This document shows positions 54,901-64,000 of a stretch of 64,000 nucleotides of DNA, in pieces. The stretch covers positions 80,292,001 through 80,356,000 of the forward strand of contig NC_058368.1 in assembly GCF_018350175.1 (NCBI RefSeq), written 5' to 3'. Both the position numbers and the translations under genes were made by a program. Positions within the stretch are counted from its first letter, which is position 1. The number at the start of each line of letters is the position of its first letter. A model generated the notes under the pieces. It did not search any database. It was not told the origin of the DNA and was given only the letters and a program-made list of their open reading frames with translations. This stretch comes from Felis catus. Its lineage: Eukaryota.

Positions 54901-56295
54901 CAATAAAGAGGTCAAGATATGCTTTTTACAAGTAACGCTGTTAGCCCACAGTGAAGGAAGAAAGGATTCCTACACCACTGATGTTAACAAAACACAAAAA
55001 ATGCTCCAAACTTCCTGGGTGATACATGATTTTCTAAAAAGTGTAACGAGTACAGGTAGCTTTCCACTTTTAGTCTAGGTCTGAAACACAACAAGTTTAA
55101 AACACGAATGAGAGAACATAGAAAGTATTAGGAAAAGTGCAATTCTGACAAAGGTAGGCAGGAGTGGTTAGCTCCAGGATGGTTAGCAGGTTGAGAAAGC
55201 GAGTACCTGGGAGATCAGAGACACCAGGCTCCAGGCTTCCTGAATGTGTGACCTCGGGGAAGTTCCTCACACTAACTGTGAAGTCCCCACCACGCGTCAC
55301 ACTTCAGGCACTCTGCAAGCAGCACTGTATGGGCGTTATTTCAAAAAATTGTGCAGGTTGAAAAAAGACGGATACAATTATCGTCCCCATCGCAAAGATA
55401 AAGAAAGCAGGACTCAAGGTAATAAAGTGGCTTGTCCAAAGTTGGAAAGAAGATAGTGGGGCCAGAAATAACTCACCAGCTGACTCCTAACCCCTGGAAT
55501 GGCCTTATCGCATTAAACATCTAATTCCAAAACAGGTCATTTATCACTGCTCCTCATTGCCTCCCTCAGTTTCCTCACCTGTGAAATGGGCATGAGCGCT
55601 TAGAACTACTACAAGAACGAAATGAGAGACTGTTAACAGGTGTGCTTCCCACAGCACCAGGACTATATTCGGTATTAAGCTGCCACTTGAGAAATGGAAA
55701 AAACCTGCAAAAGGCTCTTTCTTTACAAAATAAATGGTCGCTTGAAGCGTGAAAAATCAAACTGGGGTCACTCACCAAGCATGGCCAAGGTGTGCATGAT
55801 CATAGACAGTTGGTCCACAGCTATACCTAGGAACACAGTTACAATCCATCACGTGAATCATACTTGCAAGAAAGGACACCACATTCTCAGGGTATCATAG
55901 AACCACGTTTGGGGGATTCCCAGCCCAAGCCTGTCAAGTACCCGTGACTACAGCACAGTGTCTCCAATTGTGCCGCCACGCACTTGTCACTTACTGAATG
56001 CTTTCAACCTGAGAACCTTCCGACGCACAGTCCTTCCCGCCCCTGGTCCCCAGCACCCCGGTCCCCCAGGTCCCGGCGGCTACCAGGAGGCGGCGTCCGC
56101 GCTGCCCACGATCAAGGGGTCCTTCCTCCGGGTAAGGCTGTTGTACACCTTGACGCCCGTGTCGTGGCCCGCCGGCTGCAGCCAGCCCTGCCCGCGCGTC
56201 CCCGACGCCGCCCGCCCCGGACCGGGCCAGGCCCCCAGGCCCAGCGCCGCCCGCAGAAGCTGGGGCCCCACGCTCGCCCCGCACGCTCGCAGCAT
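11572..56295 (-). CDS. CARS2: CARS2, mitochondrial cysteine--tRNA ligase; complete, 15 coding exons, 1671 nt / 556 aa
   Basis: Spliced translation has an Arg/Ala/Leu-rich N-terminal presequence, [15 protein letters not shown] (HIGH motif), [52 protein letters not shown] and ALADDFDTP. Exon sizes 212/51/118/72/106/84/130/134/68/67/139/124/99/207/60 sum to 1671 with consistent phases. Confidence 0.98.
11909..12115 (-). CDS. CARS2: CARS2 exon 14 (207 bp)
   Basis: tatag|TTT...AAG|gtgagc; [32 protein letters not shown]...[20 protein letters not shown]. Confidence 0.94.
13346..13444 (-). CDS. CARS2: CARS2 exon 13 (99 bp)
   Basis: ccccag|GAG...CAG|gtacac; [33 protein letters not shown]. Confidence 0.93.
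13655..13790 (+). mobile_element. MaLR LTR fragment (MLT1A/MST-like)
   Basis: ggtctgaatgcttgtgtcccccaaagttggatgttgaaacctaatccccggtgtgatg. Confidence 0.6.
14119..14242 (-). CDS. CARS2: CARS2 exon 12 (124 bp)
   Basis: tctctccaag|G CTC...AAG|gtagcc; [41 protein letters not shown]. Confidence 0.93.
16001..16139 (-). CDS. CARS2: CARS2 exon 11 (139 bp)
   Basis: ctccgcag|CC GTG...GAG AG|gtaggt; [45 protein letters not shown]. Confidence 0.94.
16684..16750 (-). CDS. CARS2: CARS2 exon 10 (67 bp)
   Basis: ctgccag|GAC...TCA G|gtgagg; [22 protein letters not shown]. Confidence 0.94.
17222..17433 (-). mobile_element. SINEC_Fc
   Basis: Can-SINE body and tail on -. Confidence 0.88.
18866..19056 (-). mobile_element. 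Can-SINE
   Basis: Ends ...gagccacccaggtgcccc. Confidence 0.85.
19226..19625 (+). mobile_element. L1 ORF2 C-terminal fragment
   Basis: gaatgggagaaaacatttgcaaac...aaaaatgggcaaaagacatgaatagacacttctcc...gaaatgcaaatcaaaaccac. Confidence 0.85.
19640..19845 (+). mobile_element. Can-SINE
   Basis: ggtggctcagtcagttgagtgtctgactcttgg...aaaataaataaa. Confidence 0.88.
20684..21137 (+). mobile_element. Two tandem SINEC_Fc copies (second starts in the A-tail of the first, ~20891)
   Basis: Two consecutive head/body/A-tail units. Confidence 0.9.
21330..22180 (+). mobile_element. Ancient L1 3'-UTR remnants (L1MC-like with a nested L1MA/MB-like piece), GC-shifted
   Basis: Recognisable 3'-end skeleton (...gatgaa...cacgaccgcgctgtac...ggttacgacggg...accac); family assignment from memory. 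Confidence 0.5.
23214..23281 (-). CDS. CARS2: CARS2 exon 9 (68 bp; KMSKS motif)
   Basis: tgtttcag|GG CAT...AAG|gtaacc; [22 protein letters not shown]. Confidence 0.96.
23707..23806 (+). repeat. Compound (GAGT/GT)n microsatellite
   Basis: gagtgtgtgagtgagtgtgagtgtgt...(gt)n. Confidence 0.95.
24084..24416. mobile_element. Short + strand Can-SINE followed tail-to-tail by a - strand Can-SINE
   Basis: ggggcacctggctgactcag at 24084; - copy ends ...gccacccaggcccccc near 24416. Confidence 0.8.
25628..25761 (-). CDS. CARS2: CARS2 exon 8 (134 bp)
   Basis: cctgcag|C TTG...TCT G|gtaagt; [44 protein letters not shown]. Confidence 0.96.
26008..26227 (-). mobile_element. SINEC_Fc
   Basis: Full-length Can-SINE on -. 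Confidence 0.9.
27103..27195 (+). mobile_element. Short Can-SINE
   Basis: ggggtgccgggctggctc...gttgtgagttcaagccccacgttggg...ttacttaaaaa. Confidence 0.75.
27878..28108 (-). mobile_element. SINEC_Fc
   Basis: TSD tatgtttct. Confidence 0.9.
28649..28878 (+). mobile_element. SINEC_Fc nested in Tigger1
   Basis: TSD gaaaatgcaaacca (28635 and 28879). Confidence 0.93.
29776..29998 (+). mobile_element. SINEC_Fc nested in Tigger1
   Basis: TSD aaaagt(c/a)atcttt. Confidence 0.92.
30840..31036 (+). mobile_element. SINEC_Fc nested in Tigger1
   Basis: ggggcgcttgggtggctcag...aaacgttaaaaaa. Confidence 0.9.
31523..31564 (+). repeat. (CA)n microsatellite
   Basis: About 21 perfect CA units. Confidence 0.95.
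31818..32013 (+). mobile_element. Can-SINE
   Basis: ggggcacctgagtggctcag...A-tail. Confidence 0.88.
34716..34877 (-). mobile_element. Can-SINE nested in the L1
   Basis: TSD actcatttca. Confidence 0.85.
35436..35649 (+). mobile_element. Young SINEC_Fc nested in the L1
   Basis: CpG-intact; TSD ttgaataacatgctatt. Confidence 0.95.
38349..38478 (-). CDS. CARS2: CARS2 exon 7 (130 bp)
   Basis: ttggcag|TT GAT...TCA AG|gtaagg; [42 protein letters not shown]. Confidence 0.96.
39030..39690 (+). mobile_element. Old L1 (L1MC-like) 3' end
   Basis: gtggaatattactc...aaaaagaaatgagctatcaagccatgaa...gagtgaaccctgatgtaaaccatgg...aaaaataaagtctat. Confidence 0.75.
40008..40207 (-). mobile_element. Can-SINE
   Basis: TSD taaaattatttt. 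Confidence 0.88.
40570..40635 (+). repeat. G-rich minisatellite, ~21-22 bp x3 (gctgagcacaggggaggggga)
   Basis: Three tandem copies directly adjacent to the CARS2 exon 6 donor. Confidence 0.85.
40645..40728 (-). CDS. CARS2: CARS2 exon 6 (84 bp)
   Basis: aaaacag|GC AAC...CCA G|gtgggt; [27 protein letters not shown]. Confidence 0.95.
42428..42458 (+). repeat. (AC)n microsatellite
   Basis: About 15 perfect units. Confidence 0.95.
42951..43199 (-). mobile_element. Young SINEC_Fc with a (TAAA)n-expanded tail
   Basis: TSD cacggaaaatacttt (42936 and 43202). Confidence 0.94.
43408..43513 (-). CDS. CARS2: CARS2 exon 5 (106 bp)
   Basis: ccgtcag|GTT...CAA G|gtaggg; [35 protein letters not shown]. Confidence 0.96.
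43631..43702 (-). CDS. CARS2: CARS2 exon 4 (72 bp)
   Basis: ctctgcag|ATG...AAG|gtaaag; [24 protein letters not shown]. Confidence 0.95.
45413..45617 (+). mobile_element. SINEC_Fc inside an old antisense L1 remnant (~45240-46350)
   Basis: Full Can-SINE; degenerate TSD t(a/g)tatttctc(c/a)atc. Confidence 0.88.
46378..46913 (+). repeat. Complex CA/TG-rich minisatellite (units such as gcagctgcacacatgcatgcac)
   Basis: About 535 bp of near-alternating purine/pyrimidine; source of the six spurious HT/CV-rich ORFs. Confidence 0.93.
47893..48152 (-). mobile_element. Can-SINE with expanded GA/G-rich middle
   Basis: Can-SINE body on -. Confidence 0.88.
49769..49890 (+). mobile_element. Short Can-SINE within an old L1 3' remnant (~49560-50160)
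   Basis: TSD aaaaaggcaa(a/g)ttg. Confidence 0.8.
50759..50876 (-). CDS. CARS2: CARS2 exon 3 (118 bp; KIIK motif)
   Basis: ccttgcag|C TCA...GAG|gtaagc; [39 protein letters not shown]. Confidence 0.96.
51416..51636 (+). mobile_element. Can-SINE
   Basis: TSD aaatgtcaagaatct (51401 and 51637). Confidence 0.9.
51658..52524 (+). mobile_element. 5'-truncated carnivore L1 3' end with a nested SINEC_Fc (~52113-52325)
   Basis: TSD aagaatctggcttc (51644 and 52525); cccagcaattgcactactagg...gaatggataaagaagatgtgg. Confidence 0.9.
53184..53287 (-). mobile_element. Short Can-SINE
   Basis: TSD taca(c/t)gtcttt. Confidence 0.8.
53828..54028 (+). mobile_element. Can-SINE
   Basis: ggagcacctgggtgggtcgg...long A-tail. 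Confidence 0.88.
54160..54360 (-). mobile_element. Can-SINE
   Basis: TSD agtttcag; ends ...accacccaggcgctct. Confidence 0.88.
55170..55690. mobile_element. MIR remnants
   Basis: tgtgtgacctcggggaagtt; aaagtggcttgtccaaagtt; cctcagtttcctcacctgtgaaatgggg. Confidence 0.6.
55776..55826 (-). CDS. CARS2: CARS2 exon 2 (51 bp; HLGH motif)
   Basis: ttcctag|G TAT...GCT TG|gtgagt; [16 protein letters not shown]. Confidence 0.96.
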
Positions 56296-60224: not shown

Positions 60225-60354
60225 ATTTTTCTTTACTTTTTATTTAAAGATTTTATTTTTAAGTAATCTCTACACCCAACTTGGGGCTGTAACTCACTGC
60301 CTGGATGGAGATCAGGAGTCGCAGGCTCCACGGGCTGAGCCAGCCAGGCGCCCC
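60225..60354 (-). mobile_element. Short Can-SINE
   Basis: TSD aca(c/t)acagtaattta. Confidence 0.82.
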
Positions 60355-62110
60355 TAACATACAGTAATTTAAAAATCGCCAATGGCCTGGCCTCTTGACA
60401 ACATGCCTCCCTTCGCCGAGCACTCCGAGTTTGCACAGCAGTTGAGCGCCCTGGCTCGGAGTCTGTGGAGGAGCATCCCGCGGGATCCAGGGCACCTGCT
60501 CAGCCCGCAGAGACCGGGAGCAGGTAGAGCTGAGCCAGCTACACGGTCAGAGACCCCGACAGGACACCCCGCCCACCTGGGGAAAGGAAGCCTGCTAGCT
60601 GCACAGGACCGCTGCAGCGGAGGCCCGCCCCGGAGGCACCAGCGGTGGCCGTAGAGGCCGGAGCCCCGAGGACAAAGGCGGAGCGCGGCCACGCCCACGG
60701 GGCGGGGCCTCTGCCGGAAGCGGCGGGCCTGCGCGCTGGTCCGTCGCCTAGGCAACGGGATCGTCTGCGCGGGGCTTTTCAGAAAACCCAAATCCGGGAG
60801 CTTAGGGTGGGGAGAGAGGCCGTGGGGGGAGGGGAGAGGCCGAGATGGCAAGGGGAGCGGGTCCCGGACGCCTGCCCCGCCCCGATCTGAGTGGCCTTTC
60901 GAATAAGATCGGATCCCAGGGCACAGTCGGGATGGGGTCCGGATCGCCCGCCCTCTGCGGGAGCCCGGCTACGAATGCAACTCCCCTCTTGGGCCCCTTT
61001 GTCTCCAAGCCGCTCGGCACTGGGCTCCAGCCGGCGACACAAAGGGAAGGCGGTGAGGACCGCGCAGGCGCGCGAGCCGCTGAGGTTGCTGGGAGCGGTG
61101 GTCCGGCCGCCTAATGGTAGGTCTCCTCCCTCCCGGGCCGATGGCTTCCCTGGCCGTGCAAGTACGCATGCGCCACCACTTCCGCCCTGCACGGCGCGCC
61201 CCCTCCCTCCGCCCCCCGCCGGACGCGGGTTTCTCGTAGTAAGAGCGTGGGAGGGGTTATCCTCACTCGTCCCGCCTCTCCTTTGGTTTGCTTGGGCTAT
61301 CGAGGGAGGGCGGCGAGCGGATTGGGTCTTGGAGTTGCCAGTCTGTTTCGGGCCTTACTTATGCCCGGCTGCGCGGCGGGGCCCTGGAGAGTGAGGGGCT
61401 GGGTGTGGATAGGGAGGTGGCAGCCCAGGCGAGCGATGGCCTCGGCGGCATTGGTACCACGACTAAGTCGGTTCCGACCGGGTCTTCGGCGAGGCCGGCT
61501 GCTCCCCACGTTCCCCGGTGGGCGTGCACTGCCGCCCGACAGGCTCTGCTTCCAAGTGCGAAACTCCTAGTAAAGTTTGCGCTTCGCCCGCCGCCCCTGT
61601 TCCCGCGACCCCTTCCCCAGCCAAAGTGACAGACAAAGCCACACCCCCCGCGCGGCCGGGCCGGTGAGGGGCGTGATGCGGCGGGGGCGGGGCCCGCGGG
61701 GAGGGGGCCGTGGGGGGCGGGGCGCATGCGCGGTGCGGGGGGCCGAATGTTTCCCAAGTGTTTGAAACTGGTATTTGGGTTCTCCACGTTGGACAAGTGC
61801 GGCGCGGCGGGCGGCGCGCGCCCCTTCCCGCGCTCGCTCGGCCCCGGCCCCGGCCCTTGCGCCGGGGTGCGCGCCCGCACGCGCAGCCCGCGCCCGCCCC
61901 GCGCCCGAGGCCGCCGAGCGCCGGCCCGGCCCGCCAGGCGCCGGGTCCCCGGGCCCAGGCGGCGCGGCTCGCAGATGTAGCGGCGCGGGGCCGGCCGGAG
62001 GGGGGGCGCCGGCGGGCGGGAGCTTTGCATTTTGCAGCGCTGGGCTCCGAGGGGGCGGGGGCTGGAGGAAGCGGAAAGCCGCGCCGAGTCGCCGGGGACC
62101 TCGGTGAACC

Positions 62111-62246
62111 ATGTTGAGCCCTGCCAACGGGGAGCAGATCCACCTGGTGAACTATGTGGAGGACTACCTGGACTCCATCGAGTCTCTGCCATTCGACCTG
62201 CAGAGAAACGTCTCGCTGATGCGGGAGATCGACGCGAAATACCAAG
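62111..62246 (+). CDS. ING1: ING1 first coding exon (p33ING1b isoform); the PHD-finger exon lies beyond the window
   Basis: accATG; MLSPANGEQIHLVNYVEDYLDSIESLPFDLQRNVSLMREIDAKYQ followed by G|gtacgg donor (136 bp); the conserved ING1b N-terminus. Confidence 0.96.
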
Positions 62247-63379
62247 GTACGGCGGGATGGATGGGCGGGGGCGGCCGCTCCATCCCCGCCGGTCGCGGCG
62301 CGCCGCGGGGCCGCGGGCCGTCCTGTTCCCCGCCCGGAGGAGCCGCGGGCCCGCGGAGGTGGCCCCGGCCGGGCAGGAACAAAAGGTCTGGAGCGTCTTT
62401 GATTCGCCAAGGTCCTTGTGCGCGAAGCCCGGACACGGAGGAGGAAGGAGGAACGAGAGGTCTCAATGCCAGGCTGCGCGAGCAAAGCGCTCTTTGTAGT
62501 GAAGTGACGAGGCGGGGTGCTGCGGGGGAGGGGGCGCAGGGGGGCGCAGGCTAGGGCGCCGAGGGAGGGATGTGCCGCGGTAGCTGGGGCTGAGGGGCGC
62601 AGCGACGGGGCTGCGCGCAGGGCTGCTGGGAGGGCGCTGCGGGCGGCGGGTCCCCTGCTCTGCTCGCCATCCCCGGAGCCACCCCCACCCAGTCCCGAAT
62701 CTGAGTGTTATATAAAGTCCGGGGTCGGCACTCCGCGCGGTGTGGCCCCGGCCGCCTCCGCCCCCGCGCAGCCCCCCGGGCCTCCCGTGGAGCTGGACAC
62801 CGAGTGAGGGCCGCCGTGCAGGGGGCGGCGCGGCCGGGTGTAGTTCGCTGAGGGCTAGGGCTTTATTCTGTGCGTGCGGTGGGGAAGGGGAGAGGAGGAG
62901 AGGGAAGGGAAGGGAGGATGGGTCGAGGAAGTCGCCCATCTGTGCTCGGGGGGCGCGGGCAAAGATTGTCTGTTTGCAGAGGAACATGGCAGGGGAGAGG
63001 ACCTGTGGGTCGTTCTCTGCAGCCCCGGCTGCCCAGAGTTCCGGACAGAGGAGGAGGGTTCGTGTCCGCTGGGAATTGTTGGCTGTTGGGGAAACTTTCC
63101 TGCCAGGTCAGGCACGGCAGTGGGGGCTGCGTATGGGACGCGGATCGTCACTCGGAGTTTACTAATGTTTACAGGGCTGCGCAGCAGGGAAACGGAAGCG
63201 TGGGGGGGGGAGGTGGGAAGCAGCCGCACGCCCCGAAGCGCAACGGGCACCCCTGCGGGCATGGCGCCCCCTGCGCGCTCTAGCCGAGTCTCTGCTTCGC
63301 AGCGACTTTTATAGGGGTCTTATTAGCATATTGCGAACGTCCCGCTTTGGCCTCCCTATGATTGGTCTCGGCGTTCCCC

Positions 63380-63850
63380 ATGGAATGTCCTTATCCATCC
63401 GCTGCTGAGTTATTGGTTGCTGCGCCGGAGGAGGGTGGGCATTGCGCAGTGACTGGCACGGGTCTCTGTTTCCGCTGCCTTCTTTTTTCTTCAGAGGGGC
63501 GGGGAGGAGGAGGGGGGTCGAGTTGATTTGAATGTCTTCGGGTCGCCCGGCCTCCGGCCTGGGATTGGCCATTGGCGCTGCTGGGGTGGGCCGTGTTCGT
63601 CGATCCTGTGCTGTGATTGGAGCCCCGCTCGGCCTCCGCCCTACGGCCCGGCGATCCCCACAGGCGGTGGCTCTCGGGGCGGGGCGCGACGCCCGCTGAC
63701 CGCCTCCTCATGGGCTGGGGGCCAGGCCCCGCCCCTGTCCCTCAGGGGCTCGAGCCTGGCCACTTCCGGCCGCGGAGCAATGGCGGCGTCCCGGTGCCGG
63801 GGCTGCAGAGGTTGCAGCTCAGGCCTCCCTCCCCGGGCCCGCCGATGGTC
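63380..63850 (+). pseudogene. ING1: Non-coding (frameshifted) orthologue of the human ING1a alternative exon
   Basis: Consecutive frames give MECPYPSAAELLVAAPEEGGHCAVTGTGLCFRCLLFS, then GRVDLNVFGSPGLRPGIGHWRCWGGPCSS...AIPTGGGSRG, then R*PPPHGL, resembling the recalled human p47ING1a N-terminus; interrupted by frameshifts and a stop. Confidence 0.7.
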
Positions 63851-64000
63851 AAGGTCCGCGCGGAGCGGGGGAAGCGTGAGGGGACAGGGGCCGGGCGCAG
63901 GGCGAGCCGGGACGGCGACTCGGTGCAGAGGTCAAAGGGAGTCGTTGTCGCCCTCACCGTCCGTTAGCGCCTACAGGAAATTTCAAGATGACAGTGTTTG

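Follow-up and report, generated by a model that had tools for sequence, protein, structure and literature searches.

Where did the senescence-inducing domain of ING1a come from, and what is the DNA that resembles its exon in an animal to which no ING1a has been ascribed? ING1a has been reported in some primates only, other mammals being said to have no form of it (PMC12876503); the genomic alignments of that paper, as described, cover primates. The paper, which appeared in 2026, calls the domain primate-only without explaining its source. Here the question is approached through a stretch of Felis catus DNA of 64,000 nucleotides (NCBI RefSeq assembly GCF_018350175.1, contig NC_058368.1, positions 80,292,001 to 80,356,000 of the forward strand), which is termed here the window and whose first base is position 1. 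A preliminary description of this DNA, made without database searches, held that the human ING1a exon is present at 63380..63850 with its sequence conserved and its reading frame broken, that it is non-coding promoter DNA, and that it was either recruited from promoter sequence in the primate lineage or lost in felids. Since it has already been published that ING1a is confined to primates (PMC12876503), the point added here is the origin of the exon from older DNA: the DNA in the window is the orthologue of the ING1a exon and does not qualify as a coding ING1a exon.

The first exon of ING1b, which lies upstream of the stretch in question, fixes the locus as intron 1 of ING1. The ING1a-like stretch is located within the ING1 CpG island and 3' of the ING1b exon, the same order as in primates. 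The features discussed below are collected in Table 1.

Table 1. Features of the ING1 region, in positions of the window.
Feature	Position	Strand	Remarks
CpG island	60251..64000	.	GC 0.61-0.77, CpG o/e 0.71-1.05; spans both ING1 first-exon regions
ING1b first coding exon	62111..62246	+	45 codons and one base, phase-1 donor at 62247; Pfam PF12998 ING positions 1-31, E 1.2e-10
DNA 5' of the 48-aa ORF	62816..63379	+	four frame changes relative to panda-like P0001
Five CCAAT boxes (ATTGG on +)	63361..63620	-	at 63361, 63412, 63564, 63571 and 63616
GCG where apes have the ING1a start codon	63371..63373	+	ungapped extrapolation from the primer in PMC12876503
48-aa ORF	63380..63526	+	begins with an ATG orthologous to gorilla Val4
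T-tract and G-run, 40 bases	63479..63518	+	first frame change falls here; in gorilla and panda the span has 13 codons
Best-conserved block	63519..63545	+	RVDLNVFG in one frame; TTTGAA (CHR-like word) at 63527
Stretch read in another frame by gorilla only	63681..63752	+	stop at 63697 in the gorilla register of the window
Open frame from ATG 63710	63710..63875	+	55 codons, with another ATG at 63845; use of donor 63876 would join this frame in phase to the last exon
ETS-like and YY1-like words	63761..63787	+	ATG 63780 at gorilla Ile139
GTGAGG donor-like site	63876..63881	+	probable orthologue of the ING1a exon donor

The reference for ING1a was the gorilla protein (P0002, UniRef G3RB52); this record has 421 residues, as against the 422 that PMC12876503 gives for gorilla and human alike. 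Reading the sequence confirms the ATG at 63380, the 48-residue ORF and its stop at 63524-63526; translation of the other frames produces the continuations that had been quoted, and text matching the human opening given in the preliminary description is found both in gorilla ING1a and in a hominid-like ORF (P0007). A frameshift-aware alignment of gorilla residues 4-173 to positions 63380-63860 yields 99 identities over 157 residues with three frame changes (near 63509, 63681 and 63740-63752) and one stop (at 63697). The match is collinear, and the alignment scores 379, whereas 200 dinucleotide shuffles average 48.6 (sd 8.6) with a maximum of 84. At the residue level the window is 83% identical to panda and 63% to gorilla. 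Stops occur in all three frames between 63380 and 63875, so that no single open frame crosses the exon. As to the feature's extent, its position was correctly given but its end was not, as it runs slightly further, to the donor-like site at 63875/63876.

The ATG at 63380 aligns to gorilla Val4 rather than to the ape start codon, which the ING1a primer in Table 1 of PMC12876503 places, for human, three codons 5' of the Val4-equivalent position; counting back without gaps, the window has GCG at 63371 instead of a start ATG, and most primates have ACG there (PMC12876503). At the 3' end, the site at 63876 is the sole GTRAG between 62810 and the end of the window. Because matching donor text ends ORFs P0001 (panda-like) and P0007, and because the panda prediction makes a junction there, this site is probably the orthologous donor. 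An in-frame join to the last exon is possible from phase 1 only. In gorilla the frame that reads RVDL does reach the donor in phase 1, but in the window it arrives in phase 0 (RVDL being in frame 0 there and the donor requiring frame 2); to judge from the ends of the proteins, it would do so in phase 2 in P0001 and in phase 0 in P0004. A further ATG, at 63780, aligns to gorilla Ile139 and is also found in P0001, P0004 and P0006; this position corresponds to human residue 140, where the truncated macaque isoform starts (PMC12876503).

Three word-based searches and one profile search (ten hits, one of them already found) provided 14 mammalian proteins or ORFs that cover this DNA, including those of gorilla, giant panda and fin whale, all of which were mapped onto the DNA of the window. 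Two pairs (P0001/P0003 and P0002/P0007) are near-duplicates, so that there are fewer independent lineages than rows; moreover, the profile was built on the gorilla-type frame and could favour that register. The 14 relatives together occupy all three registers. Between the landmarks CFRC and RVDL, the gorilla register is found in 8 of the 13 scored rows, that of the window in four and the third register in one; P0012, which could not be scored for these landmarks, has the same stop context as the window. Nine rows scored between ECPY and RVDL divide 5, 2 and 2 among the registers. The gorilla register of this first part is common to primates, panda, P0004, the whale prediction and, for CFRC-RVDL, P0009, and only the first (G-run) shift separates the window from the panda-like ORFs. 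Beyond GGSRG the situation is different: here the gorilla register is unlike that of all five other scored rows, including the primate-like P0008, and the second shift is common to every non-hominid carnivore or primate row scored. Inasmuch as this later shift is common to panda-like ORFs and a primate-like protein, it is the gorilla state that appears to be derived. From RVDL to CDW all 10 rows keep one register, and DLN does not vary among 13 rows. This constancy and the prevalence of the gorilla register over the first part speak against the reading preferred below, but may be due to the fact that protein libraries hold only open frames.

Two of these relatives call for comment. P0006, which is identical to the window at 174 of 177 residues, crosses the G-run in the window's register, so that the first shift is unlikely to be an assembly error; a tree based on 55 columns groups the window with P0006 and then with P0001, P0003 and P0004, with the primate-like rows forming one group and five further rows another. 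The panda prediction, P0003, consists of two separate pieces of P0001 (from residues 187 and 309) and a piece in another frame; it is thus likely to have been stitched together and cannot be taken to show that such a protein exists. The whale record (P0005) is a partial prediction of similar appearance. As a separate matter, the hominid-like ORF P0007 has one extra base after the GGSRG point, which puts it into the register of the non-hominid rows; this base may be genuine variation or an error of the contig.

If the exon-like DNA encoded a functional protein in these species, then the residue changes between them would be expected to be conservative. They are not: in each of 11 comparisons (nine over the exon-like part and two upstream) the changes are no more conservative than those produced by random base change (P 0.21-0.96; mean BLOSUM score -0.48 to -1.46), as judged by a simple null model with one rate and 60% transitions that was applied to aligned residues rather than to DNA. 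In the control, that is, the true ING1 coding region of gorilla compared with that of panda or whale, identity is 89% and the mean BLOSUM score of the changes is +0.19. The changes thus show no protein-level selection on the exon-like DNA in these relatives. The DNA itself is well conserved: relative to P0001, 157 of 183 positions upstream (86%) and 117 of 141 in the exon-like part (83%) are identical, the implied base difference between the window and gorilla is about 0.21, and a block at 63520 reaches an identity of 0.92.

The DNA also contains promoter-like words, several of which are compatible with the relatives irrespective of frame. The five CCAAT boxes fall within 300 bases and constitute the densest cluster among the 53 CCAAT words in the window; such density is reached in 5 of 2000 shuffles (P 0.0025), whereas five CCAAT words per 2.5 kb are not unusual as a total count (P 0.22). 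Relative to RRCCAATSR, one box is perfect, three have one mismatch and one has two; none of the five matches a longer NF-Y consensus with at most one mismatch. In back-translated proteins (rather than DNA), ATTGG is compatible with 5 of 5 rows at the first box, with 12 of 12, read in three frames, at the second, and with 10 of 12 at the third; the fourth box is confined to carnivore-like rows, and gorilla and P0007 have an altered fifth box. Both a CpG island and clustered CCAAT boxes are thus found here, and motifs and evolutionary pattern together suggest that this is non-coding promoter DNA. An ING1 promoter, not further specified in the text consulted, is among the NF-YB-peak regions tested in HeLa cells (PMC4889920). 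The idea of a CHR/DREAM promoter was also considered. TTTGAA occurs 50 times in the window, once at 63527. Table S3 of PMC4176359 lends the idea no support: its entry for human ING1 carries DREAM code 0011 and neither a CHR nor a cell-cycle peak, although the 400 bases that it covers may not extend to the TTTGAA word; nor was ING1 found in the three searchable supplements of PMC4994865.

These observations are best explained, with a probability of roughly 0.7, by supposing that the stretch has long served ING1 as an alternative promoter and first exon, which apes later overprinted. From this perspective, the orthologue of the exon would have been kept as regulatory DNA, namely as a CCAAT-rich, CpG-island alternative promoter and first exon ending at a conserved donor. 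Transcripts starting there would skip the ING1b exon and begin translation late in the exon or inside the last exon, their most likely products being short ING1 proteins of the p24/p27/p31 type. The DNA sequence would be held by transcription-factor sites, while small indels would be free to shift the reading frame. The 188-residue domain of apes would then have been built stepwise on top of this promoter DNA: indels beyond GGSRG and others close to the 3' end would have compensated each other so as to create one frame in phase with the last exon, and a change from ACG to ATG would have supplied the start. Two things expected of overprinting are found, namely orthologous DNA with shared disablers in outgroups and, in 11 of 11 comparisons, a lack of protein constraint in them. 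The preliminary description is accordingly borne out in part. Its statement that the DNA is conserved and the frame is not agrees with the collinear match, the broken frame, the mixed registers and the lack of protein-level selection; and of its two proposed histories, recruitment from promoter sequence in primates is favored by the alignment, the registers, the selection test and the CCAAT cluster.

The other history, in which placental mammals inherited an ING1a-like coding exon from their common ancestor and the cat lineage and others lost it independently, is very unlikely, even though panda and fin whale have ING1a-like predicted proteins (P0003 and P0005), P0001 is open for about 185 codons from the same ATG, and more rows cross the G-run in the gorilla register than in any other (8 of 13). 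Set against this are the composite nature of the panda prediction (pieces of P0001 from residues 187 and 309 joined to one from another frame), the out-of-phase stop of P0001 at the donor, the lack of a conservative-substitution signal, the variation of the start codon between lineages and the second shift, which is common to all non-hominid carnivore and primate rows scored; loss in felids is disfavored by this shift and by the wrong phase in which the panda-like ORF meets the donor. The breaks might also be mere assembly errors, the animal itself having an intact exon, as could be suspected from the location of the first shift in a run of six Gs, a typical site of error. This was named in the preliminary description as an outcome that would speak against it, and is highly improbable given that P0006, which differs at three of 177 residues, passes through the same span in the same register and that the later shifts are common to P0001, P0004 and P0008.

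Alternatively, the stretch might be a slowly evolving CpG-island intron that serves in cat as neither promoter nor exon; a base difference to gorilla of about 0.21 is not extreme, and the upstream DNA is equally conserved. Against such an intron speak the CCAAT cluster with its retention in different frames, the block at 63520 with its identity of 0.92 and the donor at the position expected of the orthologue, and this explanation is regarded as rather unlikely. Somewhat less probable again is that carnivores and their relatives conserve and translate the 48-residue ORF, or an extended form of it, as an upstream ORF or microprotein that damps translation of short ING1. Its ATG is common to panda, P0001 and P0012 (the last with the stop context of the window) and is followed by G at +4; however, it has a pyrimidine at -3, may sit 5' of the true start site and heads an ORF whose length varies widely (48 codons in the window but about 185 in P0001), which has no Pfam match, shows no selection signal and, in a search of proteins of 30-205 residues, gave no hits at E 0.1 among two candidates. 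A last possibility, doubtful though less so than the foregoing, is that placental mammals generally transcribe the exon and that new ING1 N-termini keep arising from it. Apes would have fixed the SAD frame, whereas in the cat a 3' deletion would have brought a different frame into phase with the last exon, yielding an isoform of its own with an unrelated 55-residue extension from ATG 63710. This open frame has a reading unrelated to ape ING1a; if the proposal is true, the isoform would have about 289 residues in all, given a last exon as long as that of human.

Lineage-specific N-terminal extensions can arise as de novo coding sequence from non-coding DNA, and conserved promoter DNA beneath a lineage-specific exon is the pattern to be expected of this known process. 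As in other de novo cases, outgroups have the DNA with shared disablers and without protein-level selection, and the new domain is predicted to be disordered; unlike a typical de novo gene, ape ING1a lengthens an existing old gene across promoter DNA and is not an entirely new gene. In mouse, p31Ing1a and p31Ing1c derive from non-coding alternative first exons. Variants of p31 are reported alongside p37 (PMC3154856), and these short ING1 products beside p33/p37 resemble those proposed here for cat. Compared with the SAD exon of p47 ING1a in human and gorilla (PMC12876503), the window has the same locus and order, collinearity over gorilla residues 4-173 and an orthologous donor, but lacks the ape start, has three frame changes, internal stops and a shorter 3' end, and brings the conserved frame to the donor in phase 0, not phase 1. 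Compared with the truncated ING1a forms of other primates (159 residues in orangutan, 49 in macaque and mandrill and 45 in chimpanzee; PMC12876503), it has ATG 63780 at the macaque start, but out of phase with the last exon. As evidence against the reading preferred here, RT-PCR detected no ING1a transcripts in cells of dog and other non-human species, using primers whose match to non-human DNA is not given in the text (PMC12876503). A search of mostly open-access literature found no paper on non-primate DNA orthologous to the ING1a exon.

If the stretch is indeed an overprinted promoter, then a senescence-inducing domain gains a concrete origin, in ancient promoter DNA altered by a few indels and a single CpG-type change; variants in the coding sequence of the human SAD might then also exert their effects as much via promoter motifs as via the protein.

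Additional searches contributed little. The 48-residue ORF has no Pfam match, the gorilla N-terminus as a query gave no usable hit in the ESM Atlas, and one metagenome locus, obtained from 160 pattern matches, was rejected as a chance hit having no real similarity. A word search of sequencing runs listed 24 runs, 19 of them containing the stretch and five (from two studies) having 0.98 of its 254 words; these were not used as evidence, their RNA labels being mostly guesses and one run possibly being the source sample.

Several minor observations may be added. The 'hypothetical' proteins of panda and fin whale at NCBI (P0003 and P0005) have ING1a-like N-termini seemingly stitched from frame-broken DNA, and 'ING1a-like' database proteins of these species should be used with caution as likely homology-stitched predictions. 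Upstream of the ORF there is a second well-kept block (63040-63200, +), with an identity of 0.74-0.92 per 30 bases over 63070-63190 in two to four rows, which may be orthologous to the promoter or leader of human ING1a. A CAG that closes a pyrimidine tract (63465-63494, +) resembles a splice acceptor and, with the donor at 63876, would delimit a 381-base cassette containing the stop at 63524, i.e., a possible poison exon; this acceptor-like site was set aside, since the other rows do not clearly retain the AG. By back-translation, the C-terminus of P0006, which runs beyond the end of the window (63990-64000), could encode a second GTGAG-type donor just past 64000. Finally, a CpG-rich exon at 56080-56293 (-) lies head to head with ING1; its translation resembles the N-terminus of CARS2. 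A PDB search with this presumed CARS2 first exon found nothing, and a human table in PMC4176359 lists CARS2 head to head with ING1.
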